DNA of 64,000 nucleotides, taken from positions 6,088-70,087 of the forward strand of contig CALZJE010000003.1 of the NCBI GenBank assembly GCA_945787715.1, read 5' to 3'. Within the stretch, counting starts at the first letter, position 1. Every line of letters starts with the position of its first letter. Origin of the DNA: an uncultured Ectothiorhodospiraceae bacterium (lineage in GTDB: Bacteria > Pseudomonadota > Gammaproteobacteria > S012-40). Both the position numbers and the translations under genes were made by a program. Shown here piece by piece: positions 1-32,304 of this stretch. The notes below the pieces were generated by a model. The model ran no database searches, was not told where the DNA came from, and saw only the letters and a list, made by a program, of their open reading frames with translations.

Positions 1-338
1 AAATTAACGTTGATAAAAATCTCATTAAACAATGTTTAATTCGTACATCTATACTTTCCAATGAAAAATACCGCGGTATCAAATTGGAAATTAATAGCGG
101 CTATTTAAGAGCTTCTGCAAACAATCCTGAGCAAGAAGAGGCAGAAGACGAAATCGAAATAGACTTTGATGGCGAAAAAGTAGAGATTGGATTTAACGTT
201 AACTATCTACTAGATGCCATTACAGCTATCGATTCTGAAATTGTCCAGCTAAATGTCACCGACTCAAACGGTAGTACCTTAATTAAAGCCGATGACAGCG
301 ACGATTGCTTGTATGTAGTTATGCCCATGCGCTTATAA
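1..338 (+). CDS. dnaN: DNA polymerase III beta sliding clamp, C-terminal part (5' end lies outside the window)
   Basis: Frame 3 is open from the window edge (..ILSNEKYRGIKLEINSGYLRASANNPEQEEAEDEIEIDF..LYVVMPMRL*). This is a typical clamp domain III tail, and recF and gyrB follow directly. Confidence 0.9.
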   Translation, partial: INVDKNLIKQCLIRTSILSNEKYRGIKLEINSGYLRASANNPEQEEAEDEIEIDFDGEKVEIGFNVNYLLDAITAIDSEIVQLNVTDSNGSTLIKADDSDDCLYVVMPMRL

Positions 339-6355: not shown

Positions 6356-6907
6356 TTAGCCGACACTACAGACATATTCTACCGCGTCCAATAGATTATT
6401 CTTGATTGGGATATTATGTGCTTTGAGCTCTGTTGCCTTTTCCGCGAGTGTCTTCTTGCCTTTCCCTGTCAGAACTAATATTGGTTTCACTGAGACTTTA
6501 ATTCCTGCTTCCAAATCTCTGTATGAATCACCAATGGTGTAAACACCACACAGTGATGTTTGATAATATTCTGCCATTTTAGTAAACAGACCAGAATTTG
6601 GTTTTCTACAACTACAATTATCATCTGGTCCATGGGGACAATAAATTATTGCGCTAATTTTCCCGCCTTGTTCGGCGCATAGCTGCCTGAGTTTATTATG
6701 CATTTCATTGAGTGTCTGATGACTATAATAACCGCGAGATATGCCTGATTGATTCGTCGCTACGATGATTTTAAAACCGTGTGATGTTAATCTTGCAATA
6801 GCTTCAATAGAACCTTCTTCAGGCTGCCACTCGTCTACTGTTTTTATGTAGTTATCTGAATCTAAATTTATTACGCCATCCCTATCTAATACGATTAACT
6901 TTTCCAA
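6356..6907 (-). CDS. gmhB: D-glycero-D-manno-heptose 1,7-bisphosphate phosphatase (HAD-IIIA)
   Basis: LDRDGVIN HAD motif I, VATNQSGI motif II, a Cys-rich zinc loop CPHGPDDNCSCRKP, and GDSYRD motif IV. Confidence 0.85.
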   Translation of the reverse strand: MEKLIVLDRDGVINLDSDNYIKTVDEWQPEEGSIEAIARLTSHGFKIIVATNQSGISRGYYSHQTLNEMHNKLRQLCAEQGGKISAIIYCPHGPDDNCSCRKPNSGLFTKMAEYYQTSLCGVYTIGDSYRDLEAGIKVSVKPILVLTGKGKKTLAEKATELKAHNIPIKNNLLDAVEYVCSVG

Positions 6908-8035
6908 CGTTTCTTTTTCCTAGTCTCGTCACTAATAAAATAATAAATAAATACAGGGACCGTTCACCAAATTTCAGCGAACTTTTTTCAGTTACGCTTC
7001 TAATGTCATTTTTCGTTGAATCTTTGAGTGTTGTGAGATACATCCCTGAGAGATTGTTCCAAATATGCTTTATTACATATATTTTTCCAAATTCATCCAG
7101 AGATATAGATGTTGGATGAATGGGAGGAAATCGATTATCAGTGCCGCCTTCATCTGAAAGAAATATTTTACGCAACCCACTACTAGTTTCCTGAGTTGTA
7201 TCTGACGCATTTAATACAGCAATGTAGCCGTTCTCTATCTCTGAAGTGGTTTCTTCATTCACGATATAGCTTAAGCTAACAAGTAATTCATTCTTTTCTT
7301 GGTGATATAAAATATCGCTAGGTGCAGAATCATTTGGAAATTGATGATTTCCAATTTTAACGAGTGCTGCACTTTCTGGAGTTTCATAATTATCCACTTC
7401 TAATAAAACTAACTCAGAGGCAGCCTTGCCCCGATTTACCACAAAGAGTTTGTTTTCATCAGCTAAATAAACACCCGTTGCAGTCTCTTTCCCCAAACCC
7501 AGACTAATGCTTGCGACTTCAATATTTGTTGGAGATTCTAAACTGACGAGTGAAATACCATCAACTCCATTATCATTTGTACCTATGACAAAAAGATATT
7601 GTTCATCTTCGGAGAGTACAAGACTGGTGCCACAAGGACGCTAACACCTCTATCATGAGTAACAAATAATTTGCTTTCATCATTTGTAAAAACCATACCT
7701 CTCGCAAAACTACCTGGAATTTCTGGTGAGCCAATTAGTGAATTATTTGAGGTATCGATGATATTCAGGTAGGATTTTTCATCCCCATCCTCTTCCAGTT
7801 CTGTGGTAACAAAAACGGTATCGCCAGTTTTGTTGATTAACACATCTCTTGGATTACCAAACAATTCAATCGATTCAACATAGACACTATAACTTGCATT
7901 GACTACATGTAACTGACCATGTTTGTTATCATCACCGACATGGTCTGGTACATAGGCAAAAACGTCTGCTTTTGTATAAGGGGTTAAAATGATCAAGCCG
8001 ATAAATAATAAAAAGATTTGTGAGTGTTTTGTCAT
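6882..8035 (-). pseudogene. Frameshifted secreted beta-propeller (YVTN/lactonase-like repeat) protein
   Basis: ORF 7583..8035 has a signal peptide (MTKHSQIFLLFIGLIILTPYTKA) and ends ..LFVTHDRGVSVLVAPVLYSPKMNNIFLS*. The +1 frame is open from 7640 and reads ..GTSLVLSEDEQYLFVIGTNDNGVDGISLV.., continuing into ORF 6882..7496. Blade-like units of the type 'x-D-x-x-LFV-x-N/H' occur on both sides of the break. A single indel near 7620-7645 would join the two ORFs. Confidence 0.55.
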
Positions 8036-12902: not shown

Positions 12903-13128
12903 ATTGTTAGTGTGTTTCGCGAAAAAAGCGTAAGTATACCGATGCCACCCTGCAAAAACTATCTTTGCTGCCTATATCTCACAGGATATTTCATGAAAGT
13001 TATAACAGAGAACTAAAAAGCAGCATTTGCTTAAATCTCCTTTTAATCAAAATGGATAATCAGATCGTAAAGTATGTGTTTATTTGAGCCGATTAACTAA
13101 ACAGACCATTTAAAGAGAATATATCAAT

Positions 13129-13701
13129 ATGTCTCAAATCATTATCGATTCAAGTAGTACAGAACAATGGCAAAAGTTGGTTCATGAAGCAGAATCTTTA
13201 TGTGAATTTCAATTAGACGAAGAGTTAGAAAGCTATTTGGTATTTTTATTAATGCGCTTTTTAGGTCGTTCGGACTTTACTTCTCGAATAATGGCGATGG
13301 ATTATCTTCATAGCCTAATCCAAACCGGTCAATTACAACAGGAAAGCTTAAGAGATGTGGGGGATCACTGTTTACTGTTTTCTGGTCTATTCCCAAAAAT
13401 AGCAGAGAGACGAAGTGTGAAAATTAGCTACTACGTTGGGATTGGCAAAAGTGCGTATAGCCACTTGGCTGATACCTGCAAAGAAAGTTTAGGAACTTTT
13501 TACCGCCAGTTAGCTGATGCTTTTGTGCAACTAATGGATATTCTTCAAGTAATTGGCAATATGCGAAACAACGCAGAAGTTCTTTCGCCATTAGAAGCAC
13601 TAGAATTATGGGGAGATACTCAAAGTAAACAAGCACTTAGATCCATCCGAAGCTTTTCAAAGGGAACACCAATAATTCATTCGCAATCCACAAAGCATTA
13701 A
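13129..13701 (+). CDS. Hypothetical protein
   Basis: 190-aa ORF with coding-like composition and no overlap with other genes. I recognised no motif. Confidence 0.45.
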   Translation: MSQIIIDSSSTEQWQKLVHEAESLCEFQLDEELESYLVFLLMRFLGRSDFTSRIMAMDYLHSLIQTGQLQQESLRDVGDHCLLFSGLFPKIAERRSVKISYYVGIGKSAYSHLADTCKESLGTFYRQLADAFVQLMDILQVIGNMRNNAEVLSPLEALELWGDTQSKQALRSIRSFSKGTPIIHSQSTKH

Positions 13702-13822
13702 ATAATATTTTCGGCATAAATAATGTATTTATTACAGTAAGCAGCTTTAGCTATCTTTAGTTTCGTGATTTGATAATTAACCCAGCCGAATTAAATTCGA
13801 AGTCTTTCTTTTCTTTTCCCAC

Positions 13823-14082
13823 AGTTATCCACTTCCTCTAATAAATAATATATCTATATATAAAAACTTATTGTTATTATTGGTTCAATCATTTTTGTGG
13901 TTAAGTTTCGATTTAGTTATATTTTTCATCATCTTACTGAGAGTTTTTTGTATTAACAAATTGTATAAATATACTTAACTAAGCTGTGGGTAACTTGTTC
14001 ACAAAAAGCGTTATTTTCCGTTCCGATTTTCTATTAACAAGTTATCAACAGTCTATTCCAATTTTATACACGTGTTTTTAAG
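13823..14082. repeat. DnaA-box module copy A
   Basis: Aligns along its length with 14462-14724. Examples: ATATATCTATATATAAAAAcTT.. against ..aTT.., and TAAGCTGTGGgTAACTTGTTcACAAA against TAAGCTGTGGaTAACTTGTTtACAAA. Both copies end in ..TTATACACG.GT..TTTAAG. Confidence 0.7.
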
Positions 14083-14461
14083 AATAAATGGCGATCTACG
14101 AGTATTTACCGTTACTAGGTTAGTTAAATACCAGTATTTTTTATGGATATGATTATTACTCGATTCAAACGCAGTGCTTTATTGCAGAAATGCTTTTAAA
14201 ATGACTGATAATTATTAACCACTCTTTTCACATTTACTCTCCAAAATAAAACATTTCTATTATTAGGGGAATAAGAGTTGAATTTAGTGATAATATTTCT
14301 TATAAGAATTTTTTGGCTTTTTACAGATCTTCAAAAACTTTCTACCGGCATAAAATTTGAATCTAATTTATTAAACATATTAACCCCTTTATGTTTTTGG
14401 CTGCTGGTTTGAGACTTCCCCTTAAAACTCAGATCAGCAGCTTTCCTTTATTATTTTTCTT

Positions 14462-16143: not shown

Positions 16144-17303
16144 GCGATCAATCGGAGCAATCTGAATCCGCAGTCAGATACCAGCAAGTAAAAAAAGTCA
16201 CCTTAATTGGTGCTCTCGTTAATGCATTCCTAGCCGCATCTAAAATTATCCTGGGTTACATTGGTCAATCACAAGCTCTAGTTGCTGATGGAGTTCATTC
16301 CTTAGCGGATCTAGTTAGCGATATTATTGTGGTATATGCAGCGAAACATGGATCCCGCCAAGCAGACGAAGACCATCCGTACGGTCACGGTCGTATAGAA
16401 ACGGTTGTAGAAGTTTTATTAGGTTTTTTGCTTATTGCTGTAGCACTTGGTATTACGATCGATGCAGTATCAAGAATTAATACGCCCGATCTACTTCTTT
16501 CGCCGACTTGGTTTGCATTAGTAGCAGCATTGATTTCGATTTTTGCGAATGAAGTGCTGTTTCAATATACATTTACAGTTGGTAAGAAAGTAAAATCCAA
16601 CTTACTCATTGCCAACGCCTGGCATCATCGAACAGACGCAATCTCTTCAGTAATTGCACTTATTGGGATTGCAGGTGCGATGCTTGGTTTTCCTTTATTG
16701 GATGCGGTAGCGGCGATTGGTGTTAGCCTTCTTATTTCAAAAGTTGGCTGGGATATTTCTTATCGTGCATTTAAAGAGCTTATTGATACTGCACTTGAAG
16801 CAGAAAAAGTTGAAAAAATAAAAGCATTAATTTTATCGGTAGATGGCGTTAAAGCTGTCCATTCTTTACGGACACGAAGCATGGGCACCTATGCTCTTGT
16901 GGATGTCCACATTTTAGTGGTAAATTCACGTATTAGTGTCTCAGAGGGACATCAGATTAGCGAAAGCGTAATGTACAGGTTACTTAAGGGGATTGATGAG
17001 GTATCCGACGTAACCGTCCATATTGATCCGGAAGATGATGAAACTTGTGCACCATGCAGATATTTGCCATTACGTAAAGATTTTCAAATTTATCTGAACT
17101 CTGTATTCGAGAACAATAGTTACTATGATCGAGTGACAAAATCTACACTGCATTATTTGAATGGAAAAATTATTGTTGAGTTGGTTTTACCGGTTTCAAT
17201 ACTAGATGAAAATATCACCGCCAGTGATATTTTTTCTTCGTTCAAAGATTTCGAAGATCCAAAAAGCTACATCGCAGAAATTAATATTCTCTTTGGATTG
17301 TGA
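16140..17303 (+). CDS. Cation diffusion facilitator (CDF) family metal efflux transporter
   Basis: Six transmembrane segments with HSLADLVSD (TM2) and WHHRTDAISS (TM5) metal-site motifs, plus a C-terminal cytoplasmic domain. Overlaps the TusA-like gene by 4 nt. Confidence 0.85.
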   Translation: MSDQSEQSESAVRYQQVKKVTLIGALVNAFLAASKIILGYIGQSQALVADGVHSLADLVSDIIVVYAAKHGSRQADEDHPYGHGRIETVVEVLLGFLLIAVALGITIDAVSRINTPDLLLSPTWFALVAALISIFANEVLFQYTFTVGKKVKSNLLIANAWHHRTDAISSVIALIGIAGAMLGFPLLDAVAAIGVSLLISKVGWDISYRAFKELIDTALEAEKVEKIKALILSVDGVKAVHSLRTRSMGTYALVDVHILVVNSRISVSEGHQISESVMYRLLKGIDEVSDVTVHIDPEDDETCAPCRYLPLRKDFQIYLNSVFENNSYYDRVTKSTLHYLNGKIIVELVLPVSILDENITASDIFSSFKDFEDPKSYIAEINILFGL

Positions 17304-17422
17304 TCTATATTGGTGCTAATTGGTTTCTGCATGTGTTTTTTTAGTGCGCTTATTAATATTTACTATAATTTATAAACGGATTTTGTTAATTAAGCTATTG
17401 TTATAAATAAGTAATTGTGTAT

Positions 17423-17438
17423 TGGCATATGTAATGCT
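17423..17438 (+). promoter_or_regulatory. Sigma-54 (-24/-12) promoter of glnA
   Basis: TGGCAT-ATGTA-ATGCT with GG and GC exactly 12 nt apart, about 59 nt upstream of the glnA ATG. Confidence 0.7.
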
Positions 17439-17496
17439 TAAATAAACAAAATTAAAATTTTAAAGTGTCTCCAATTTTATTTTAAAGGGTGAGAAA

Positions 17497-18903
17497 ATGC
17501 CGTCTAACGTTTTAAAGATGATGAAAGAATTTGAAGTGAAGTTTGTTGATTTTCGCTTCTCAGATACTCGCGGTAAACAAATGCATTTAACAGTTCCAAG
17601 TACAGCTGTTGATGAAGATTCATTAAAAGAAGGGATGATGTTTGATGGTTCTTCAATCAATGGTTGGAAGGGCATCAATGAGTCAGACATGATTTTGATG
17701 CCAGATCCAAGTACTGCGACAATGGATCCTTTCACTGAAGATTCAACGTTAAACATCGTATGTGATGTTGTTGAGCCAGCCACTATGTCTGGTTATGAGC
17801 GTGATCCTCGTTCTGTTGCTAAACGTGCAGAAGAATTTTTGAAATCTACAGGTATTGCAGATACCGCTTTCTTCGGTCCTGAAAATGAGTTTTTTGTGCT
17901 TGATGACGTTCGTTGGGGTGCTGATATGTCAGGCTCTTTTTGTAAAATAGATTCAGAAGAAGCAGAGTGGAACTCAGAAAAAGTTTATGCCGACGGTAAC
18001 ATGGGCCATCGTCCAGGTACTAAAGGCGGTTACTTCCCAGTACCACCAGTCGATTCTTTGTATGACTTGCGCTGTGCTATGACTACTGCGCTTCAGGAAA
18101 TGGGGCAAGAAGTTGAAGTGCATCATCATGAAGTAGCAACAGCTGGTCAATGTGAGATTGGTGTTAAATTCAACACATTAGTTTCAAAAGCTGACGAAGT
18201 TCAAGATCTAAAATATGTAATTCATAATGTATCGCATGTATATGGCAAGACAGCGACTTTTATGCCTAAGCCGATGGTTGGCGATAATGGTAATGGTATG
18301 CATGTTCACATGTCTCTTGCAAAAAATGGCGAGAATCTTTTTTCTGGTGATGAGTACGGTGGTCTATCTGAAACTGCACTTTTCTACATTGGTGGAATTA
18401 TTAAACATGCGCGTGCAATCAATGCTTTCGCAAATGCTTCGACAAATAGCTACAAACGTTTGGTCCCAGGATTTGAAGCACCAGTTATGCTAGCTTACTC
18501 TGCACGTAATCGTTCTGCTTCTATTCGTATTCCTTATGTCACAAACCCTAAAGGGCGTCGTATCGAAGTACGATTTCCCGATTCAACAGCAAACCCCTAT
18601 TTAGCGTTTGCTTGTATGTTGATGGCTGGTCTTGATGGAATTAAGAACAAAATCCATCCTGGTGATGCAATGGATAAAGATCTATACGATCTTCCACCAG
18701 AAGAAGAGAAAGAGATCCCACAAGTATGTTTTTCTTTCGATCAAGCATTAGAAGCACTAGATAAAGATCGTGAATTTTTAACTGCTGGTGGTGTATTTAC
18801 TGACGACATGATCGATGCTTATATTGATTTGAAAATGGAAGAAGTAACACGTTTACGCATGACAACTCACCCAGTTGAGTTTGATATGTACTATAGCTGT
18901 TAA
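17497..18903 (+). CDS. glnA: Glutamine synthetase type I
   Basis: 468 aa. [15 protein letters not shown], the [19 protein letters not shown] motif, the adenylylation-loop region NLYDLPPEE and ASIRIP. Confidence 0.97.
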
Positions 18904-22307: not shown

Positions 22308-22631
22308 CACTAGCTCCTGGCTATCTCCACTAACCGGTGAACTTGTACAGCAATCAAACCAATTCCTTGCACTCCAATCTCATACTCAACGGATCTTTTA
22401 AGATTTATCTTATCGGTTCCATTCCCGTATTAAACTTAGAAAAAAGTAGATTCATGAAATATACTCTGAGGGCTGTAACCCAACCCTTGTTTCGCCTAGC
22501 GATATGAAAAGCAATACTTTGTGTTTTTTTGATAGCCAGCTGCCTTTTCTAGGATAAGCCTAGAAAAATCAGTTGATCCGTGATTTAGCGCACAACCACT
22601 TGATTCACTTGGCAATATGAAAAGTATTTGA

Positions 22632-22648
22632 ATCACCAACCTGGTGAT
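22632..22648. promoter_or_regulatory. Perfect palindrome; enhancer (UAS) candidate
   Basis: ATCACCA-ACC-TGGTGAT, i.e. 7-3-7 with the same architecture as NtrC sites, located about 200 bp upstream of the sigma-54 promoter at 22837. Confidence 0.4.
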
Positions 22649-22736
22649 CATAAATATTTTCATTACGCCAATCAAACCGCACACTTGCATGCTAATTTCG
22701 CATCCAACAGATCTTTCTAGGTTAAACGTTTTTAGC

Positions 22737-22752
22737 GCGAAGTTTCCTTCGC
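22737..22752. promoter_or_regulatory. Second palindrome; enhancer (UAS) candidate
   Basis: GCGAAG-TTTC-CTTCGC, about 90 bp upstream of the -24 element. Related TTCGC motifs are at about 22707 (TTCGCATCC) and about 22790 (CTTCGCTTCGAA). Confidence 0.35.
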
Positions 22753-22836
22753 ATCAATTTACTTCATTATTCAAAAATACGAATCAATCTTCGCTTCGAA
22801 AACATTTAAGTCATTGTTTTATATATGTATTAATCT

Positions 22837-22852
22837 TGGCATTCATTCTGCT
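22837..22852 (+). promoter_or_regulatory. Sigma-54 (-24/-12) promoter of the five-gene cassette
   Basis: TGGCAT-TCATT-CTGCT with GG (22838-39) and GC (22850-51) 12 nt apart. It lies 56 nt upstream of ATG 22908, which has the SD AAAGGAG. Confidence 0.7.
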
Positions 22853-22907
22853 CCTATGCAAGAGATTAGTTTGATGTGATATTCAACCACGAATAAAGGA
22901 GAACAAC

Positions 22908-23627
22908 ATGCATGATTTAGATCAGACCCAACTCGATTATAGCCGTGCAGAGTTTGATGATGACGAGTTTGAGTTAGAAGGGGAGTTCGAAAATGATATG
23001 GCTGTGTCAGGTGCTGATGAATATGAGGATGAGGATGAGTTTGAAAGTGAATATGAGTTCGAATCCAACTTTGATGGAAACAGTCCTTTTAGTGAAGCAG
23101 AGGAAATGGAGCTTGCTGCGGAATTAATGGAAATTGCAGACGATGGGGAATTGGAATATTTTCTAGGTAGGCTGATTAAACGCGGCGCTCGACGGGTTGG
23201 TCGTAGGCTACGTAAACGTGTAGGTACACGGTTGAGAAAGGGGTTAAAAAGACTTGCTAAACGCGGTTTGAGATTCGCAGGTGGAGCTGTTGGTGGTGCG
23301 TTAGGTGGTCCTGTTGGAGCCGTGGTAGGACGAGCTGCGGGTCGTGGATTGGGAAAAGTGTTTGGACTTGAATTAGAAGGTATGAGTCTGGAAGACCAAG
23401 AGTTTGAAGCAGCGCGTCAATTTGTTCGGCTTGCAGGTGATGCTACCTCTACTGCAACAGCAATTCCCTCTTCTGTTAATGAAGAAGTTGTTGCTCACAA
23501 GGCGCTGAAAAGATCAGTGGTAAAATTTGCACCGGGACTCGCAGGTAAAACCAGACGCTCTGTTCGTGGAGAAAAATCTGGACGCTGGGTTCGTAAAGGT
23601 TCTAGCATCATTCTAATGGGTGTTTGA
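22908..23627 (+). CDS. Tripartite acidic / poly-cationic / glycine-zipper protein (candidate pro-toxin or pro-peptide)
   Basis: 239 aa. Residues 1-85 contain 35 D/E and one Arg (DEYEDEDEFESEYEFES). Residues 88-122 contain 18 R/K and no acidic residue (RLIKRGARRVGRRLRKRVGTRLRKGLKRLAKRGLR). Residues 123-153 contain 12 Gly (AGGAVGGALGGPVGAVVGRAAGRGLGKVFG). The tail is basic (..GRWVRKGSSIILMGV). Strong SD; first gene after the sigma-54 promoter. Confidence 0.7.
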   Translation: MHDLDQTQLDYSRAEFDDDEFELEGEFENDMAVSGADEYEDEDEFESEYEFESNFDGNSPFSEAEEMELAAELMEIADDGELEYFLGRLIKRGARRVGRRLRKRVGTRLRKGLKRLAKRGLRFAGGAVGGALGGPVGAVVGRAAGRGLGKVFGLELEGMSLEDQEFEAARQFVRLAGDATSTATAIPSSVNEEVVAHKALKRSVVKFAPGLAGKTRRSVRGEKSGRWVRKGSSIILMGV

Positions 23628-24946
23628 GTCCCATGACTACCCCGCTGGTACGACAAGTTCTGAGCAATGAGACTCAAGCACTGATGGCTCGTCTCAGAGG
23701 AATTAAGCCGTTTTCCTTACATGTGCCGATGGTTGCTGCCGCTGCTTTGCAAACTTCAGCTCAACAATTGATAGAGCAGCATATGCACAGGGTATTGTCG
23801 TCAGTCGCTCAGATGCTCGGAACATATGAAGACTGGTTAAATAGTGAGGCGGGGCGTCGAACCAAAGATGCCACTGCACAGCGACATCTAACACTGGTGA
23901 GATTGCGTTTCCATGCAGCATTGACGCAGTTTGATCTTTTTTCAGATGTACTTACTCAGCGTAGTGAACATGAGTTTGGTGTCTGGCTCGCTGGACTTGA
24001 TGCACTAGCAGTGGATGCATTAAAAATAGAAGGAAAATACTTCGAACTGCCAGGTGTCGCGTGTTATCTAGATCGAGGAATAGGTGCTGCTATTCGACGG
24101 GTACGTACACGCTTACCTGGCGGGCGTGAAAATCCTGTTGCTATAATTCGAGTTCCTCGTGAGCGGATGATTGGCTCAGGCATCGCTTCATCGTTGGTTC
24201 ATGAAGTCGGGCATCAGGGTGCTGCGTTGCTAAACCTTGTGGAATCATTACGAAAGGAATTGCAGAGAAAAATTCATTCTGACGGATCGCCGTGGCGTTT
24301 ATGGCAACAATGGATATCAGAAATCATTGCTGACTTTTGGTCTGTAGCGCAGATCGGTGTGGGTTCTACTTTGGGTTTAATGGGTGTTGTTAGCTTACCG
24401 CGTGCATTTGTATTTAGAATTAGTGAAGAGGATCCTCATCCTTCACCGTGGATACGAGTCATGTTGAGTGCATCGATTGGCCAAGCCCTTTATCCGGATT
24501 CTCAATGGCGTCGTCTTCGTGAAGTTTGGATGCGTCTTTATCCGCGCACAGGTATCGATCCGGAAAAGGAACAACTGTTTCAAGGTTTGGAAGCTACGAT
24601 ACAGGAGTTTGTTGAGTTATTAACTCAACATCGGCCACGAACACTAGAAGGGATATCATTGTTAGAAATTTTCCCTGTTTCAGATAGACAACCAGATCGG
24701 TTAAGAAACTTATATGGTCAATGGTCAGGGAGGTTTAACGCTTGGCGCACCTCGTCCCCGGCGTTAGCGTTTGCCGTTATCGGACAAGCACGCGCTGATG
24801 ATCGACTAAGTGTATCAGATGAATCGAATCTTATTAATAGACTATTAAACCATTGGGCATTCAATCGAAATGATTTAAATAATCAATGCGGATGTAGACC
24901 TAAGGCGAATGCATATTCAACTGCAGTTATATCTACTGCGTTATAA
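23624..24946 (+). CDS. Orphan HExxH (gluzincin-like) putative metallopeptidase
   Basis: 440 aa. SSLVHEVGHQG (H193-H197, nt 24200-24214) with a candidate third ligand E233 in WISEIIADFW. The TTG 23624 / ATG 23633 start overlaps or abuts the upstream stop, which suggests translational coupling. Confidence 0.55.
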   Translation: MSPMTTPLVRQVLSNETQALMARLRGIKPFSLHVPMVAAAALQTSAQQLIEQHMHRVLSSVAQMLGTYEDWLNSEAGRRTKDATAQRHLTLVRLRFHAALTQFDLFSDVLTQRSEHEFGVWLAGLDALAVDALKIEGKYFELPGVACYLDRGIGAAIRRVRTRLPGGRENPVAIIRVPRERMIGSGIASSLVHEVGHQGAALLNLVESLRKELQRKIHSDGSPWRLWQQWISEIIADFWSVAQIGVGSTLGLMGVVSLPRAFVFRISEEDPHPSPWIRVMLSASIGQALYPDSQWRRLREVWMRLYPRTGIDPEKEQLFQGLEATIQEFVELLTQHRPRTLEGISLLEIFPVSDRQPDRLRNLYGQWSGRFNAWRTSSPALAFAVIGQARADDRLSVSDESNLINRLLNHWAFNRNDLNNQCGCRPKANAYSTAVISTAL

Positions 24947-24957
24947 GGAGTCTTGTA

Positions 24958-26826
24958 ATGAAACAAATAGATAATATATCGATTATACAATCTCACCATG
25001 CCGTAGTGCCGGACGGTGCAGTTTCTCTACGCTTATCAGAGAACTATGTAGATGTAACAAAGTACACATATATTTGGCGTACTCCTGAATCGTTGGGTGA
25101 GTTTAATTATATTGATCAACCCAATGTTATATGGACCGCTCCATTAAAAGCAGCAGGTGTGGTAGAAATAAGCGTAGAGATTATGCCTAAAAGCGGACAG
25201 AGTGGAGGTAAGAAACGCAATACACGTGCTTCATCGGAAAATTCCACGGCTGAATCTACACATCTCGAAAATATAGAGACAATAATCATCTCAACTACGG
25301 TGGAAGTTACGCCAAATGCTTTGCCTTTAGATGTAGTTGGTGCGATTGGAGAAGGTGTTAAGGCTATCAAAGAGGGTCTACCCGGTCAGGAAATACGTTT
25401 GGAGCGACAATTTCCTGCGCTTACGCCTCAAAAATCATTGTGGGCTATTATTCGCGACCGTACCAATGCAATTTCATTTAACAATTACAAAGCATTTATC
25501 GACTCGATTATGTGTGGCGGTGATACCTATCACAGCAAACAGATTCCCCATGAAGTTAAAGAATATGTCAATTTTGATCCGAGTAAATTGCACTACCGAG
25601 GTACCGAGTCGTATGAGGTTTTACGAAAAGCGACAGAAGCATTTCTGATGCATGAAATTGGTGCTTTACCCACTCCCGTAAATGAATCTGAAAAATTTCC
25701 CTTAGCAGACCCTGCTGAACAAAAACGGCGTTTACCACAACTCGCGGGTTCAAATGACGAAGAAGTTCAAATGGAAATGGAAAGTAATCGAACTGAATAT
25801 TTAAAAACATTGGAAGACGAAAGTCGGACCTTTCCTTATTTTAAACTTATCCGCGATCGTTTAAGTGAGATACCCCTTAAACCTCCTGGCTCATCAGGAG
25901 AAGGATGTTATGGATTATTGCGTTCGCGAATTTCACCACCAATTTTACTAGAATTAATCTGGTCTTATTGGCACGAAGAAGGAGGTTTGGTGCAAACAAT
26001 GAAAGCCATTAATATGCGCTTTCAGAACCGTTTATATAATCCACGTAAAAATGGGAGCGATCCGTTGGCTAATCTTAACTTGGATCCGTTACGTCCTATG
26101 AGCAATATTATTTGGGGATATATTCAAAATGAGCACGAGCATTTAACGTTATCAAGACGCGCTTATGAATACGATCATCATTATGGATTCAGTATCGCCG
26201 GAAAGGCAGTACCCAAACTCAACTCTGCCGATAGCCGTACTAAATTTTTAGAGGCGTTTCACAGTCTTCTTCATCGTGCCTCGGTGTTTTACAAAGAGCA
26301 ATCTGATACAACTAAAGTACCCGATGGTTATCCGTTGCTAAATGGATTGAAGGAATGTCATTTGTTGCTGGCTGAAGGTGCACATAACCAATTTGGTGAT
26401 TTACCCTGGACAGCGCGTATTGAAATGCTCATCGAGCAATGGATGTTAGCGCGGCCAGAAACACGGAATTTTTTGAACCGACGAGTGATGGTGCCTTACT
26501 CAGAAGAGTGGATGCCAGCGGTTGATCAAATGAAAGACTTGCAAGGTTGGTCAGGTGGTACCGTGCGTCATTTTCGAGATCTAGGAACGTTCGGTGAACA
26601 AATCTTGTTGTCAGTACGTTATGGAGATTGGAGTGAAAATTTTAATGAAGATGAAGCCAAAATCTGGGCTCAGTATTGGCGACAGGAGATTCAAGGTTAT
26701 ATCAATGCGTATCGTTCAGTAACGAGTGTAGACTTGGGATCGGATGCAGATCTGGCAAATGCTACGCTATCTCGTCAACGATCGACTGCACCTGCCGAGT
26801 TATTGAAACAGCAAGGTACTCGTTGA
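24958..26826 (+). CDS. Large hypothetical protein, no recognisable domain
   Basis: 622-aa uninterrupted ORF with SD AAGGAG 7 nt upstream. An N-terminal ~75-aa beta-rich module and a Ser/Gly/Lys linker are followed by a Trp/His-rich helical body (LLELIWSYWHEEGGLVQTMKAINMRFQN). Confidence 0.6.
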   Translation: MKQIDNISIIQSHHAVVPDGAVSLRLSENYVDVTKYTYIWRTPESLGEFNYIDQPNVIWTAPLKAAGVVEISVEIMPKSGQSGGKKRNTRASSENSTAESTHLENIETIIISTTVEVTPNALPLDVVGAIGEGVKAIKEGLPGQEIRLERQFPALTPQKSLWAIIRDRTNAISFNNYKAFIDSIMCGGDTYHSKQIPHEVKEYVNFDPSKLHYRGTESYEVLRKATEAFLMHEIGALPTPVNESEKFPLADPAEQKRRLPQLAGSNDEEVQMEMESNRTEYLKTLEDESRTFPYFKLIRDRLSEIPLKPPGSSGEGCYGLLRSRISPPILLELIWSYWHEEGGLVQTMKAINMRFQNRLYNPRKNGSDPLANLNLDPLRPMSNIIWGYIQNEHEHLTLSRRAYEYDHHYGFSIAGKAVPKLNSADSRTKFLEAFHSLLHRASVFYKEQSDTTKVPDGYPLLNGLKECHLLLAEGAHNQFGDLPWTARIEMLIEQWMLARPETRNFLNRRVMVPYSEEWMPAVDQMKDLQGWSGGTVRHFRDLGTFGEQILLSVRYGDWSENFNEDEAKIWAQYWRQEIQGYINAYRSVTSVDLGSDADLANATLSRQRSTAPAELLKQQGTR

Positions 26827-26863
26827 TGCCCATGTTTCACCTCAACTCTTACTACTAGGAGGG

Positions 26864-27694
26864 ATGATAATGTTTGAAGATGGAGATTACGATGATTTAC
26901 GTGAGGAAAAGTTTCTGAACTGGCCAGAAAGGAACAGACCTCCACGCCTAAAAAGTCGGATTGCTGCCCTACATCGTTCTTATTCGCCTGATCCAGTAGG
27001 TCGGGTTCAGCGTAATAACTCAATACGATCAAAAGATGATATGGTGGAATTTAATTTTTCAGGTTTAGAAGTAGACGGATTTATTTCACGAGAGGTAGAA
27101 GATGAACAGTTTCTAAATTATTTATGGCCATTCTCATCAGATCCCAATATTGTGGATCGCACAGCTTATTCACCTAAGTCTAAGCGAAAGAAAATTCGAG
27201 ATATTGATACAGTTTATGCACTGGTTTTACATCAAGCAGGCTTTAGTCGTGGAAATGATCCTAAAAAATATAATAATGTGACTTCTCATTTTGTCATTAT
27301 GCCAAACGGAACTATTCTTCAACTCCACCCTTTGACTGCCTATTTATATTCTTCCAATGGGTTTAATCGGGGTAGTGTAGCTGTTGAATTTATCGGTAAT
27401 TTTCCTAGCGAGCGTGGCAGATGCTGGAAACCTGAAAAGTATGGTTGTAATCAGGTTTCAAACGATCAAATTGAGGCAGGTCGACAATTAATTAGATATT
27501 TAAGGAAAAAAATAGGGCTGACTCACGTGTTGGCGCACCGTCAATCGAGTGGTTCGAGAGGCAATGATCCGGGGCCAGACCTTTGGCACCAAGTTGGGCA
27601 ATGGGGTGTAAATAAGCTAGGGCTAAATGATGGGGGGCATGGTTTTAAAATTCAGTCGGGTAAGGCAATTCCTGATTCATGGCGTAAAACTTAG
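26864..27694 (+). CDS. N-acetylmuramoyl-L-alanine amidase, amidase_2 (AmpD/PGRP/T7-lysozyme) fold, no signal peptide
   Basis: YALVLHQAGFS (first His ligand), GSVAVEFIGNF, and LAHRQSSGSRGNDPGPDLW (His, then Asp 10 residues later, followed by DPGP). About 110 aa of unassigned N-terminal extension precede the domain. The likely start is ATG 26870, downstream of AGGAGG. Confidence 0.8.
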   Translation: MIMFEDGDYDDLREEKFLNWPERNRPPRLKSRIAALHRSYSPDPVGRVQRNNSIRSKDDMVEFNFSGLEVDGFISREVEDEQFLNYLWPFSSDPNIVDRTAYSPKSKRKKIRDIDTVYALVLHQAGFSRGNDPKKYNNVTSHFVIMPNGTILQLHPLTAYLYSSNGFNRGSVAVEFIGNFPSERGRCWKPEKYGCNQVSNDQIEAGRQLIRYLRKKIGLTHVLAHRQSSGSRGNDPGPDLWHQVGQWGVNKLGLNDGGHGFKIQSGKAIPDSWRKT

Positions 27695-27730
27695 ATCGAA
27701 AAACCATTAAATATAATCATTGAAGGAAAA

Positions 27731-28645
27731 TTGGTGAGAGATATGAGGTCTTATGAAGAACTAAGTAGAGTTTCCCATGAAAATGGCAAAGATAAAGAGT
27801 TTTATTATAAGTCGAAGGTTAGACCGGTTTCTAATTCTATGGGTGATTTTAGTCAACAGGAAATTGTTGACGATTTTGACGATAGAAAAAGACTTGGCAG
27901 TATCAAAGATACACCTTATAGGTGGATATGCATGCTGGATTTGCACACAAAAAGTGGATTATTTGGTGGGACTGGAGTACTCATTTCCCCCAGACACATT
28001 CTTACGGCTGGGCATAACCTAGATGGTTGTAATAAAGTAGTAGTGGTGCCTGGAATTAATGGTCGCTTCAAGCCATTTGGAAGTTACGAATCTACAACGA
28101 TGATTGCCCACGATAAATGGAAAAAACATAGAGACGATAATTTTGATATTGGCATGATAAAACTTTCCAAACCGGTTGGGAATCAAAGGTTTAATTCAAT
28201 AAAGGGAAATGTTCTGGGTCATTGGGGACATTCTGCTTTCGGAATGGGTACGAGAATTATACCATTTGTGCAGAGCAATCAATTAAACAAAAAAGCAAAT
28301 ATTGCTGGTTATCCAAGTGATAAAGGATTTACGCAGCTTTGGTGGGATGCGGGTAAAATTGTCAATACCGCGCCTGCCAAAGCATCAGGAGCAATCTATT
28401 ACACTATGGATACATGTGGTGCTCAAAGTGGAAGTCCAGTTTGGTTAAGAAGTAAAAGTTCAGGAGCAAGATTTTTAATTGCTATACATAGTGGTCCATG
28501 TTTATTAGATGGCTCAGATTGCAAAGAATTATCTGGAAAGCTTTGTCCCGGTAGTAGTTTACGTAAACCACACTCTTCTAATATGGGGGTATTTTTAACA
28601 GCGGGACTAATTAAGACGATTAGAAGTTGGATTCGCTCTATGTAA
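27731..28645 (+). CDS. S1B (V8-like, COG3591-type) trypsin-fold serine endopeptidase, no signal peptide
   Basis: Catalytic triad contexts ILTAGHNL (His), NFDIGMIKL (Asp) and DTCGAQSGSPVW (Ser, GxSGSPV as in V8/SspA). The likely start is ATG 27746. Confidence 0.8.
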   Translation: MVRDMRSYEELSRVSHENGKDKEFYYKSKVRPVSNSMGDFSQQEIVDDFDDRKRLGSIKDTPYRWICMLDLHTKSGLFGGTGVLISPRHILTAGHNLDGCNKVVVVPGINGRFKPFGSYESTTMIAHDKWKKHRDDNFDIGMIKLSKPVGNQRFNSIKGNVLGHWGHSAFGMGTRIIPFVQSNQLNKKANIAGYPSDKGFTQLWWDAGKIVNTAPAKASGAIYYTMDTCGAQSGSPVWLRSKSSGARFLIAIHSGPCLLDGSDCKELSGKLCPGSSLRKPHSSNMGVFLTAGLIKTIRSWIRSM

Positions 28646-28735
28646 TCGCTATTAGAAATAATACCAAACAAATTTGTTCAACGTTATAAGTATTAAAGGT
28701 TTCGATAACTAACAAGTAAGTGTATTAATGACAGT

Positions 28736-30085
28736 TTATGAATGATTTTCTTGTTGCTTGCGCAACTGTAGCGCTCGCGGCGTAATTTTTAATTGCTTTG
28801 CAATCTTCGCGGTAGAGCCATTATGTTCAGCCATAGCAACATCGATAGCAACATCGGCGGCAGCACTACTAATTTCTTTTAAGCCCACGCCCAGTGAGAG
28901 TGCTTTACGAACAGCGGCTTCAAGATCTCCACGGCGCCAGTCACTCGTTTCTCTTGTGATGTTTTGAAATTCATCGTGGGGTATATCACCGATCGTATAT
29001 TGGCCGTCGCAAACATGACGGCCTCGCATGCGTAAGCAAAGCTGTCGAAGATCACGAATATTACCAGGATAAGCACGATTAATGAGATGGTGCTGTACGG
29101 CTGAGTCGAGTTCTGGATTTATATCATTTTGATGACGGAGGAAATGTTTAGCTAACGATAGAATGTCTTCCTTACGTTGTGAAAGTGATGGCAGCGTAAC
29201 GGTCCAATCTGCGAGACGGTAATAAAGATCACGGCGAAAACGCCCTGCTTCAATTTCTTCTAATAAATTTCGATTTGTAGCGCAGACTAGTCTGAAATCG
29301 GTGTCATGCCATGTGTTGCCACCGACTCGTTTGTAACGTTTTTCTTGAAAAACGCGTAGCAGTTGCACTTGAAGATCCAATGGCAACTCGCCGACTTCGT
29401 CTAGAAATAAGACACCACCGTCGGCCCGCGAAAATGCTCCTTCACGTTGACTACCTGCTCCGGTAAAAGCACCGCGCTCGTGACCAAAAAATTCACTGCC
29501 AGATAGGCTTGGGACAATGGTGGCACAATCTACTATGCTAAGTTCCTGCTGACTACGCAGAGGATCTACGGAATGAATAACTTTTGCAGCGAGTTCTTTT
29601 CCTGTTCCCGTTTCACCGTTAATTAAAACTGCATAATCACTAAATCTCGCGGCTTCAACAATTTGCCTTAAGGCCATTAGCCAAGGTATGCTGTGGCCAA
29701 TGACGATATCTTGTATTTCTGGGGAATTAGTGATTTTATTTACTCTCTCCCAACGACGAAGACGTACTGCAATATGGTCAGCTGTTTTACCTTCGTTGTC
29801 CCATAAGACGACGTCACTCGCGCCAGCTTCAATCAAACGATATACATCGTTACTATTTAGGTAGTCTGGGTTTGTGGTTACTGCGATAACGCGCTGTTGG
29901 GTTCTACAAGAGAATTTAGAAATACAGCTATATACATTGTCATCGGCATGATCGAATACGATAATCGCGGCTTTCGCATTATCTTTTGTATCGTCAATAC
30001 AAAAAATCACGCCTCGATTAATGAGGATTTGATGGATCGAATCGCGATTCACTACACCCAAGCAATTTAGGACTGTCCGTGTCAT
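28736..30085 (-). CDS. Sigma-54-dependent transcriptional activator (bEBP) with atypical receiver-like N-domain
   Basis: AAA+ domain with GETGTGKE, an intact GAFTGA loop ([13 protein letters not shown]), Walker B LFLDEVGEL, and a C-terminal HTH (STAKIAKQLKITPRALQLR). The N-terminal ~120 aa are receiver-like, but VLWD replaces the K-P motif. Convergent with the cassette. Confidence 0.9.
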   Translation of the reverse strand: MTRTVLNCLGVVNRDSIHQILINRGVIFCIDDTKDNAKAAIIVFDHADDNVYSCISKFSCRTQQRVIAVTTNPDYLNSNDVYRLIEAGASDVVLWDNEGKTADHIAVRLRRWERVNKITNSPEIQDIVIGHSIPWLMALRQIVEAARFSDYAVLINGETGTGKELAAKVIHSVDPLRSQQELSIVDCATIVPSLSGSEFFGHERGAFTGAGSQREGAFSRADGGVLFLDEVGELPLDLQVQLLRVFQEKRYKRVGGNTWHDTDFRLVCATNRNLLEEIEAGRFRRDLYYRLADWTVTLPSLSQRKEDILSLAKHFLRHQNDINPELDSAVQHHLINRAYPGNIRDLRQLCLRMRGRHVCDGQYTIGDIPHDEFQNITRETSDWRRGDLEAAVRKALSLGVGLKEISSAAADVAIDVAMAEHNGSTAKIAKQLKITPRALQLRKQQENHS

Positions 30086-31101: not shown

Positions 31102-32304
31102 CTATTCAGCTTCGATAATTGAAGCGGTTTCGTCACCAGTTTTAAAGTTGAAATTATACTCTGTACTATTTTTGCCTGACTTATCTGTTACAACCAAAGA
31201 GAACTTATGCTCACCTGCGGTTAGAGGAGCTTTCACGCCCTGGCTTTGTAGTGTGGTAAATTCCTTGGTTACCCTTTCGAATAGATTCAAAATTTCTTCA
31301 GTTTGAGGGTTTTGAAAATAAAGACCTTTCCCAGCTTCTGCAATTGCAGTTAAGCTTTGATCATCAATTTTTTCGCCAAGCCCAATAACATGCACAGTAA
31401 GATTATCAATATTACTTATTTTATTGAGGATCGTTGTCAGTGAAGTTTCTATTCGACCTGACATTAGGTATTCCGCTCCACTCGATGTAACAAAAGGATT
31501 GGGGTTTTGATCGGTGAAAGAACTGTTATCAAATTGACTATAATTGTCTGCGCCATCGGAAAAAACAAGCATCACATTTTGATGATTATTTTCTGTATCT
31601 TCTTCACTGGTTTGACTATTAATCAATTCATCCAATGTGTAATCGATAGCTGCATAAAGTTTTGTATACGTTCCATCAACTGGGCTGGGAATAGTTGTGA
31701 TATCCAGCGGTGACCAGTTTCTATTTTCATTATTCACTGCATAATAAATATATGAGTCGAACCAACTGGATTGAAAAGTGAAATCGCCGGTGCGGTTTTT
31801 CCAGAGTTCTTGGCCGGTTTGTACGCTTTTTTGAGCCGCTTGTAACATTAGCTCAAAAGATTGATTAACTTTCATTGAGTAGCTTGTGTCGAGAACCAGA
31901 TTATAATGAACATTGTACGCGAGTTCTCGTGCACTACTGCTCAAATGGTACTCGACATCAAAGTCTTCATCATCGATTTTTAGCTCTACATCGATTTGAT
32001 CAGGTGTGAGTGGGAGATTATTGTCAGTTCTCGGAATGAATTGCAGAACTATATTAGTAGTACCATGATCTCTGTCGTAGCTTATTGTTGGTTTAGTTAC
32101 CAAATCTATTTTAACATTGCCCGAATAGTTACCTTGATTTTCAGTTTCTGAATCTTTGGGTTCCGTTTCTAACTCATTTTGATCTTTATTCTTTTTTTGT
32201 TTATCAATCTCATTGAGATTACCACCACCACAGGAAATAAGTGCGAACGTAAAAAGCATTACTATTACTAAATCATGGCATTTTACTAGCGTTGTTTTTT
32301 GCAT
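31102..32304 (-). CDS. von Willebrand factor A-domain lipoprotein
   Basis: Lipobox FALISC|GGG. MIDAS-like LVLDTSYSM, then MLVFSDGADN and VHVIGLG. Confidence 0.65.
   Translation of the reverse strand: MQKTTLVKCHDLVIVMLFTFALISCGGGNLNEIDKQKKNKDQNELETEPKDSETENQGNYSGNVKIDLVTKPTISYDRDHGTTNIVLQFIPRTDNNLPLTPDQIDVELKIDDEDFDVEYHLSSSARELAYNVHYNLVLDTSYSMKVNQSFELMLQAAQKSVQTGQELWKNRTGDFTFQSSWFDSYIYYAVNNENRNWSPLDITTIPSPVDGTYTKLYAAIDYTLDELINSQTSEEDTENNHQNVMLVFSDGADNYSQFDNSSFTDQNPNPFVTSSGAEYLMSGRIETSLTTILNKISNIDNLTVHVIGLGEKIDDQSLTAIAEAGKGLYFQNPQTEEILNLFERVTKEFTTLQSQGVKAPLTAGEHKFSLVVTDKSGKNSTEYNFNFKTGDETASIIEAE

Follow-up and report, generated by a model that had tools for sequence, protein, structure and literature searches.

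In a 64,000-nt stretch of DNA from an uncultured Ectothiorhodospiraceae bacterium (contig CALZJE010000003.1, positions 6,088 to 70,087; hereafter the window), five co-directional genes, here called g1 to g5, and one convergent gene encoding a bacterial enhancer-binding protein (bEBP) are located between ntrC and a trmL-like gene. They form a self-contained, horizontally mobile cassette and belong to a family of approximately 80 related loci in at least 12 phyla. These loci share one layout, i.e., two palindromes, a sigma-54 promoter, one or two copies of g1, then g2 and g3, a variable block of genes, and the bEBP gene. The cassette is unnamed in the libraries that were searched, and it is built on three protein families without known relatives. 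Tentatively, and at slightly less than an even chance, we favor the reading that it is a sigma-54-locked module that breaches the envelope of its own cell and releases enzymes; every step past transcription in this reading is one that we infer.

A family of loci with a constant core

The 83 loci fetched were scanned with hidden Markov models (HMMs), which showed a near-universal gene order with the bEBP gene mostly in convergent orientation. Clustering of all their open reading frames (ORFs), on contigs many of which are incomplete, yielded only six conserved families: g2 (in 80 loci), g3 (75), g1 (73), the bEBP (52), a pyridoxal phosphate (PLP)-dependent enzyme (45), and an Amidohydro_2 protein (42). 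The first-pass annotation of the window had described a five-gene unit and had proposed co-occurrence of the homologues in other genomes as a check. Homologues of g1, g2, and g3 indeed share loci with the bEBP, and the unit itself had to be redrawn: the invariant core consists of g1, g2, g3, and the bEBP, and the amidase and the S1 serine protease encoded by g4 and g5 are interchangeable. More than half of the loci contain a gene for a divergent PLP-dependent acyltransferase of the BioF/Kbl type directly after g3 and an Amidohydro_2 gene directly before the bEBP gene, and about one tenth contain an M20 dipeptidase gene (examples of these accessory genes are at 13028-14125 and 17100-17942 of locus L011 and at 6443-7924 of locus L052). 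None of the three is present in the 64 kb of the window. The nearest relative, with 78% identity in g3, has the layout of the window, i.e., g1-g2-g3, a trypsin-like gene, and the bEBP gene. No conserved transporter, transmembrane protein, or extra gene was detected in the 80 loci, nor were any immunity genes.

When one genome per species was scanned, at least 558 loci with relatives of g2 were found. Their hosts are found in the Chloroflexota, the Alpha-, Beta-, and Gammaproteobacteria, the Planctomycetota (anammox bacteria), Nitrospirota, Acidobacteriota, Verrucomicrobiota, Myxococcota, Desulfobacterota, Calditrichota, Deinococcota, and Methylomirabilota, and the core proteins of different phyla are about 45-58% identical. 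With 8,000 candidates scored per protein and relatives counted as clusters at 90% identity, g2 has more than 5,400 relatives and g3 has more than 4,400; all are annotated as hypothetical and are devoid of Pfam domains. For g1, 577 such clusters were found, which extend to the Actinomycetota and Bacteroidota. Pfam, NCBIfam, PADLOC, PDB, and PHROGs contain no match for g1, g2, or g3, and the profile searches called for earlier thus placed them in no known family or pathway. Full-text searches of the literature retrieved no description of the cassette either; the earlier statement that no known system combines these parts holds for the family libraries and for the literature thus searched.

No flanking gene is conserved among the loci, and the position of the cassette beside glnA-ntrBC is, therefore, an accident of this genome. 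The G+C content of the cassette (0.41-0.48 at 22500-29500) differs from that of the flanking housekeeping genes (0.35-0.40), which is consistent with horizontal acquisition. A phage origin was rejected, since neither the 50,697 phage records nor the 2.9 million viral contigs searched contained a match. Likewise, a plasmid-borne element was rejected: 72,556 plasmid records contained four full-length and two partial hits, the full-length ones on megaplasmids or chromids of 1.4-2.8 Mb. Nor did a defense-island context find support, with about ten single hits to defense models among 137 flanking proteins. PADLOC gave no match for g4, matched g5 only to the protease part of LmuA, and matched the bEBP only to the AAA+ and helix-turn-helix (HTH) parts of the RtcR models.

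Promoter, activator sites, and enhancer-binding protein

The regulation is the best-established part of the system. Sigma-54 promoters were defined by a GG at -24 and a GC at -12, spaced canonically as in TGGCAC-N5-TTGCW. The promoter in the window conforms to this definition and is located 56 nt upstream of the ATG of g1, with an AAGGAG Shine-Dalgarno sequence in between. By itself, a -24/-12 motif is insignificant in the window, where four matches were found vs. 2.06 expected, one of them being the glnA promoter. Among the related loci, TGGCA-N7-TGC is present directly upstream of the first g1 in 65 of 76 cases, with 0.034 expected per 600 nt. An unbiased search for palindromes upstream of these promoters retrieved GCGAA-N6-TTCGC in 30 of 65 loci and in three at most in shuffled controls. 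When nCGAAr-N4-yTTCGC was searched with up to one mismatch, 55 of the 65 loci had a site and 38 had exactly two, the background rate being 0.022 in 310 nt. The positions of these sites peak at about -100 and -58 from the -24 element, and the window has both. Presumably, the two upstream palindromes are bound by the bEBP.

Two further elements are located in the 600-nt spacer between ntrC and g1: a direct repeat of 26 nt, with copies at 22486-22511 and 22599-22624, and an imperfect palindrome of 30 nt at 22609-22671. These had been considered as activator sites and were dropped when the motif search across loci led to 22737-22752 and 22779-22794. They may be remnants of an insertion or other regulatory sites.

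The bEBP has the build of an enhancer-binding protein, i.e., an N-terminal domain (residues ~1-125), an AAA+ domain with the GAFTGA motif, and a C-terminal HTH. It matches Sigma54_activat (PF00158) with E=3.1e-56 and HTH_8 weakly (E=0.009), and GAFTGA as well as the Walker A and B sequences GETGTGKE and LFLDEVGE are present. The GAFTGA motif is intact, as described before, and its residues G205, T208, and A210 are shared by all 39 orthologues compared. The bEBPs of the loci constitute one orthologous group, with 40-48% identity to the window protein and 71% in the case of the nearest relative. Their N-terminal ~125 residues have no Pfam match in any of the 39 members. The bEBP scores far below the cutoffs of the NCBIfam equivalogs (RtcR, NorR, NtrC, PspF, and others); the best score is obtained with RtcR (260.8 bits vs. 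650) and concerns the AAA+ part only. As promoter, palindromes, and orthologous bEBP recur across phyla, the original view of a single sigma-54 unit with its own activator is upheld.

In Nocardiopsis sp. YSL2 (locus L086, 7060-15132), the order is promoter, g2, rpoN, promoter, g1, g3, Amidase_2 gene, and bEBP gene, with one -24/-12 motif ahead of g2, another ahead of g1, and rpoN between these two genes. Furthermore, rpoN adjoins the cassette in two Chloroflexi loci and in one further locus (L038 18581-20032, L073 16175-17521, and L003 5160-6518). Actinobacteria have been reported to lack sigma-54, and only some Chloroflexi possess it (PMC3162934). The presence of rpoN in or beside the cassette in such hosts argues that sigma-54 control is obligatory and is transferred together with the cassette. 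Transcription of the cassette probably depends on RpoN, and obligatory sigma-54 control is as expected for dangerous cargo. The Nocardiopsis case may represent a sigma factor that spreads within an operon under its own control.

The core proteins

The g1 protein starts with an invariant MHDLD, followed by a poly-acidic region (charge -34 in the window protein), a conserved helix (EEMELAAELL...ELExFLG), a polycationic stretch with a GxxxG zipper (charge +21), and a conserved C-terminal domain, which reads LELEG...GRWVRkG..IILMGV in the window and ends with GRWVRrG..IILxGV in the family. It is conserved over its full length and has no hypervariable core. In 96 homologues, the charge of the acidic region ranges from -10 to -43 and that of the cationic region from +6 to +26, and the two are correlated with a Pearson r of -0.80, without phylogenetic correction. 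The boundaries of the regions were derived from an HMM alignment; boundaries drawn by regular expressions were discarded, because these can create such a correlation artificially. The cationic segment is predicted to be a strongly amphipathic helix. The highest helical hydrophobic moment (muH) of g1, 0.99, is found in the 18-residue window 86-103; within the 36-residue cationic segment, the maximum is 0.86, a value that 37 of its 2000 shuffled versions reached. Thus, g1 looks charge-masked, and its compensating charges and amphipathic cationic helix agree with the earlier suggestion of a self-neutralized protein.

In contrast, the suggestion that g1 is holin-like was not sustained. Its highest mean hydropathy on the Kyte-Doolittle scale over 19 residues, located in the Gly-zipper, is 1.36, the threshold for a transmembrane helix being 1.6. 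As it lacks a transmembrane helix, g1 cannot be counted among the holins as a family. The PHROG lysis proteins gave no match, Pfam and NCBIfam revealed no relative, and single-sequence and profile searches of PDB yielded no meaningful hit for g1, nor for g2 and g3. The g1 module, taken from the conserved helix onward, also occurs as a fusion partner: it is joined to amidases in Nitrosomonas and elsewhere, and to PG_binding proteins in other loci.

A short motif, [PV]F[SE]E/S, recurs after acidic prefixes. It is found in g1 at residues 59-63 (SPFSE) and in the leaders of effector proteins discussed below (EPFE; in L005, L019, L021, and other loci). Also residues 88-92 of g4 (WPFSS), located before the amidase domain, match it, and the same holds for the Nocardiopsis amidase. 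Possibly, the motif is a shared recognition or cleavage site.

The g2 protein is a candidate metallopeptidase. Its HEVGH motif (residues 193-197) is invariant in 43 homologues, as are E233 and D237, and it is preceded by an arginine-rich loop (151-181) with an invariant cluster of arginines. An AlphaFold2 model (mean predicted local distance difference test score, pLDDT, 87.7) shows an N-terminal three-helix bundle, a β-hairpin, and then the helix with HEVGH (186-202), whilst E233 and D237 are on a later helix (231-244). HExxH with a downstream Glu, which is the sequence hallmark of a zincin, has a gluzincin-like arrangement in this model. Hence, the motif on which g2 had initially been called an HExxH protease stands, and a match to a zincin fold is lacking. 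A weak Sec-like stretch noted previously in g2 is located in the conserved and confidently modeled N-terminal helical bundle and is, therefore, not a signal peptide.

The g3 protein consists of a variable N-terminal Ig-like β-sandwich (residues 1-117) and a conserved all-α core of ~470 residues with 61 invariant positions. The α core has no match in PDB. A candidate role for g3 is that of an obligatory partner; it may be a scaffold, a chaperone, an inhibitor, or an enzyme.

Effectors encoded in the variable block

The variable block, i.e., the interval of 1-6 kb between g3 and the bEBP gene, was examined with Pfam for 56 encoded proteins. PG_binding_1 domains are present in 29 of them and PG_binding_3 domains in 16; Trypsin or Trypsin_2 domains were found in five to six, OmpA-like domains in five, Amidase_2 in three, VanY in two, and Muramidase, CHAP, 3D, DUF2272, and Extensin-like_C domains in one each. 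This inventory fits the earlier proposal of murein as the target. Several of the proteins combine more than one warhead or module: a leader, PG_binding, the g1 module, and Amidase_2; VanY, PG_binding, and 3D; two PG_binding domains and CHAP; or Amidase_2 and muramidase.

Many of these effectors share an N-terminal leader, xxx[FL]xFE[AT][EI]PFE, at residues 5-13 and usually with its start at residue 5. It was found in 30 of 157 non-core ORFs within the operons vs. 10 of 562 ORFs in the flanks. Next come an acidic run and, after it, a polycationic stretch rich in Arg and Pro, the charge of which averages about +9 over 80 residues. Other effectors start with MH..CxCxxC, after which a g1-like module follows. 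As the leader is common to amidase, VanY, CHAP, trypsin, and PG_binding proteins, the effectors display the constant N-terminus and variable C-terminus by which polymorphic toxins are recognized.

In the window, g4 has an acidic N-terminus and an Amidase_2 domain (PF01510, E=4.4e-12, 46.9 bits vs. a cutoff of 26) at residues ~95-275. H123, E175, and H225 are invariant in the family, and D235 of the window protein is located ten residues past H225. This is the His-to-Asp spacing of the AmpD-like zinc site, the ligands of which (His, His, Asp/Cys) are kept. Thus, g4 is a predicted N-acetylmuramoyl-L-alanine amidase. It matches phage endolysin families, and its amidase domain shares 52-60% identity with the amidase domains of effectors encoded elsewhere. 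The amidase of the Nocardiopsis cassette is 57% identical to g4. The g5 protein matches Trypsin (PF00089, E=2.2e-9, 37.9 bits vs. a cutoff of 20.6) and contains TAGH (H95), D139, and GAQSGSP, i.e., the predicted His/Asp/Ser triad of S1 proteases, of which the family conserves H95 and D139. Its closest solved relatives are V8-type glutamyl endopeptidases (2e-6). Thus, both enzyme assignments made initially are confirmed by Pfam scores above the cutoffs and by retained catalytic residues. Neither g4, g5, nor the other effectors have a signal peptide. No 19-residue segment of g1 to g5 attains a Kyte-Doolittle mean of 1.6, in agreement with the original observation that the five products lack signal peptides.

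Whether proteases remove the acidic region of g1, as was suggested, has a divided answer. S1 proteases are encoded in only about eight of the 80 loci and elsewhere carry the same leader as murein-binding effectors, which makes them likelier cargo than maturation enzymes. In the window, the affinity of g5 to Glu-specific V8 proteases keeps a role in maturation possible. The amidase and the protease of the window are two of many interchangeable effectors.

The locus in the window

The cassette occupies the DNA between the end of ntrC (22307) and the start of the trmL-like gene (30632). All features of the first-pass annotation were recovered at the coordinates given there; Table 1 lists the genes and control elements. 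The same applies to the tight spacing downstream of g2, with gaps of 11 nt (g2-g3), 37 nt (g3-g4), and 36 nt (g4-g5). The 4-nt overlap between g1 and g2 is uncertain: the corresponding database protein (P0121) has 437 residues, which makes the ATG at 23633 as likely a start as the TTG, and the overlap is then replaced by a 5-nt gap. Rfam has no match in the window.

Table 1. Genes and control elements of the cassette, numbered from the first nucleotide of the window
Feature	Position	Strand	Description
Upstream activator site 1	22737-22752	.	Perfect palindrome GCGAAGTTTCCTTCGC; start 100 nt upstream of the -24 element
Upstream activator site 2	22779-22794	.	ACGAATCAATCTTCGC, one mismatch; start 58 nt upstream of the -24 element
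Sigma-54 (-24/-12) promoter	22837-22852	+	TGGCATTCATTCTGCT; TGGCAT-N5-CTGCT, GG/GC at canonical spacing
g1	22908-23627	+	239 aa
g2	23624-24946	+	440 aa from TTG, or 437 aa from ATG 23633; candidate metallopeptidase
g3	24958-26826	+	622 aa
g4	26864-27694	+	276 aa; Amidase_2 effector
g5	27731-28645	+	304 aa; S1 serine protease effector
bEBP	28736-30085	-	449 aa; sigma-54 enhancer-binding protein

Upstream of the cassette, glnA (17497-18903) is preceded at a distance of 60 nt by a -24/-12 motif (TGGCATATGTAATGC, 17423-17437) and followed by ntrB and ntrC, which is the classical nitrogen-regulated arrangement. Downstream of the gene that neighbors the cassette, an ORF of 400 codons on the minus strand (31102-32304) encodes a protein that starts like a lipoprotein (LISCGG) and includes an acidic region of low complexity.

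Proposed mechanism

In the mechanism that we favor, a kit for attacking murein would be produced and stored in the cytoplasm, guarded by a type of promoter that stays silent until activated. A signal sensed by the N-terminal domain of the bEBP would switch on this otherwise silent promoter. The g1 protein would be membrane-active, with its polycationic amphipathic helix and Gly-zipper neutralized in cis by the poly-acidic N-terminal region. This mask would have to be removed or displaced, and candidate enzymes for this step are g2, with its HExxH motif, and, in the window, possibly the Glu-specific-like g5. The unmasked g1 module could then damage the cytoplasmic membrane from the inside. Thereby, the leaderless amidase g4, or other effectors in the relatives, would reach the murein, and the envelope would be breached, resulting in lysis or leakage and in the release of enzymes. 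The polycationic segments of the effectors could aid in crossing the outer membrane of neighboring cells. The purpose may be altruistic release of bacteriolytic enzymes, programmed death, or the release of DNA or public goods. There are precedents for parts of this scheme: engineered fusions of polycations and endolysins cross outer membranes (PMC4161244), and in the type 10 secretion system (T10SS), signal-less proteins are naturally released by lysis (PMC10847048).

Several points weigh against this mechanism. It rests, for all members, on evidence from sequences and models. The g2 protein has no match to a zincin fold, no profile similarity to a known peptidase family, and no relative in PDB by fold or sequence. 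A canonical transmembrane helix is absent from g1, and a holin and a spanin are absent from the cassette. The correlation between the charges in g1 ignores phylogeny, and the effectors show no scaling of acidic and cationic charges of the kind found in g1. On g4 and g5 of the window, the canonical leader is unrecognizable, and only an acidic N-terminus is found. Furthermore, g3, the BioF/Kbl-like PLP enzyme, the Amidohydro_2 protein, and the M20 dipeptidase have no place in the scheme, which also leaves the [PV]F[SE]E motif and the sensory input unaccounted for. Finally, the absence of immunity genes fits self-lysis, but sister cells would be unprotected if the enzymes act outside the cell.

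In a wider formulation, g1, g2, and g3, for which neither sequence searches nor fold searches against solved structures gave a recognizable relative, could constitute an unrecognized, phylum-spanning machine for breaching the envelope or releasing proteins. It would have its own N-terminal signal, for targeting or processing, on a polymorphic arsenal of murein hydrolases and a portable lock consisting of the bEBP, the two palindromes, and the sigma-54 promoter, which has taken rpoN into Actinobacteria and has rpoN alongside in Chloroflexi. We consider this possible but rather doubtful.

Alternative explanations

The main rival explanation is non-lytic export, which we regard as unlikely. In that case, g1, g2, and g3 would recognize the acidic leaders (xxx[FL]xFE[AT][EI]PFE or MH..CxCxxC) and deliver the enzymes to the periplasm or the exterior, the producer would survive, and g2 would be a leader peptidase. 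The enrichment of a positional N-terminal motif on enzymatically unrelated effectors (30/157 vs. 10/562) is what such a machine predicts, and constant leaders with variable warheads follow the logic of secreted polymorphic toxins. Moreover, the arginine-rich loop by the HExxH motif of g2 could bind acidic leaders, and a type VI secretion system (T6SS) effector has been found to need a glycine zipper for membrane translocation (PMC10240207). However, for the passage of one or two membranes, a machine of three proteins that look soluble and have neither a transmembrane helix nor an ATPase would be very small, and immunity genes are absent. Also, the sigma-54 lock, accompanied by rpoN into phyla devoid of sigma-54, suggests that the products are hazardous to the producer, and the leader is unrecognizable in the lineage of the window.

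The possibility that the bEBP senses phage infection and the cassette then lyses the cell prematurely, i.e., abortive infection, appears improbable. A tightly silenced suicide module with a patchy horizontal distribution would fit the pattern of such systems, and the combination of a protease and a masked pore-former recalls bacterial gasdermin systems. However, g1 to g4 have no PADLOC match, and the flanks contained only those roughly ten single defense hits among 137 proteins. The cassette is absent from the phage records and the 2.9 million viral contigs, and its four full-length copies among plasmid records are on megaplasmids or chromids. Besides, polymorphic murein-binding warheads with polycationic segments would be superfluous for simple suicide.

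Still less credit is given to maturation of a ribosomally synthesized and post-translationally modified peptide (RiPP) or other biosynthesis, in which g1 would be a precursor processed by g2, g3, and, in other loci, the PLP enzyme, the amidohydrolase, and the M20 dipeptidase, with the murein enzymes as accessories. One or two copies of g1 lead the operon, g1 has an invariant N-terminus and an HExxH partner, and genes for the BioF/Kbl-like and Amidohydro_2 proteins are present in more than half of the loci, with M20 also found in relatives. However, g1 is conserved throughout without a hypervariable core, its module is fused to large enzymes, and the window and its nearest relatives keep the core in the absence of all three accessory enzymes. 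Lastly, cytosolic recycling or scavenging of muropeptides and peptides under nitrogen limitation, suggested earlier because of the proximity to ntrBC, is very improbable, as, whilst cytosolic AmpD belongs to Amidase_2, the cassette of the window adjoins glnA-ntrBC, and some relatives encode an M20 dipeptidase and an amidohydrolase, this adjacency is unique to the window among loci whose neighbors all differ, the cassette has its own bEBP and candidate binding sites, the effectors contain PG_binding, OmpA-like, muramidase, CHAP, VanY, and 3D domains that act on or bind polymeric, intact murein, a permease is lacking, and the architecture of g1 would have no role there.

Comparison with known systems

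Ordinary members of known families in the cassette are the promoter type, the AAA+ core of the activator, the Amidase_2 protein, and the S1 protease. As in holin-endolysin(-spanin) cassettes and T10SS (PMC10847048; PMC10109510), signal-less murein hydrolases would need a membrane lesion made by a small co-expressed protein, control is tight, the outcome would be lysis or release, and g4 matches phage endolysin families. However, a holin, a spanin, and viral occurrence are lacking here, g1 to g3 are unrelated to lysis proteins, the effectors are polymorphic with leaders and polycationic stretches, and control is by sigma-54 and a bEBP. The polymorphic toxins, such as the Tae/Tge-type effectors of T6SS and the colicin-like pesticin, share the constant N-terminus, the swappable C-terminal murein-degrading domains, and the fast turnover of warheads, whereas the cassette has no secretion apparatus, PAAR, VgrG, Rhs, receptor-binding domain, or adjacent immunity gene.

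Bacterial gasdermins resemble g1 in being membrane-active proteins held by an intramolecular inhibitory segment, with proteases encoded next door. They have no sequence relation to g1, in which the masking appears to be electrostatic (r = -0.80, without phylogenetic correction) and cleavage is putative. In CdzC/CdzD of Caulobacter (PMC5380434) and Tde1 of Agrobacterium (PMC10240207), an extended GxxxG zipper is the membrane-active element of an antibacterial protein. However, the Cdz proteins are small, are exported by a type I system, and are accompanied by an immunity protein, whereas g1 lacks an exporter and contains, besides its zipper, an acidic region, a cationic region, and a conserved C-terminal domain. 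Artilysins (PMC4161244) combine a polycationic segment with a murein hydrolase, and their natural counterparts would be the fusions of the g1 module to amidases and those proteins in which a leader and an Arg/Pro-rich stretch precede PG_binding and hydrolase domains. Artilysins, however, are man-made and have no masking region, and crossing of the outer membrane by the natural proteins is putative. Lastly, the sigma-54 regulons PspF-psp and RtcR-rtcBA have the same -24/-12 promoter, upstream palindromes, and GAFTGA-containing AAA+ activator alongside, but here the bEBP is below all NCBIfam equivalog cutoffs, its N-terminal domain has no match, and the regulated genes are new. Thus, as it has no transmembrane holin, secretion apparatus, immunity gene, gasdermin or zincin fold, or exporter, the cassette is outside the closest known systems.

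Significance

If the proposed self-breaching mechanism is correct, the cassette would represent a new route for folded murein hydrolases out of the cytoplasm or a new form of self-killing. It would explain operons of hypothetical genes in nitrifiers, methanotrophs, anammox bacteria, Acidobacteria, Janthinobacterium, Variovorax, and rhizobia. Cultured carriers include Janthinobacterium lividum, Variovorax, Paraburkholderia phymatum STM815, Ensifer adhaerens, and Myxococcus. Natural fusions of charge-masked polycations and lysins would embody the design principle of the engineered Artilysins, and the set of sigma-54, activator, and enhancer would travel as a portable safety lock that has taken rpoN into Nocardiopsis. 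Should g1, g2, and g3 form a machine of their own, they would constitute a new class of lysis or secretion systems in bacteria.

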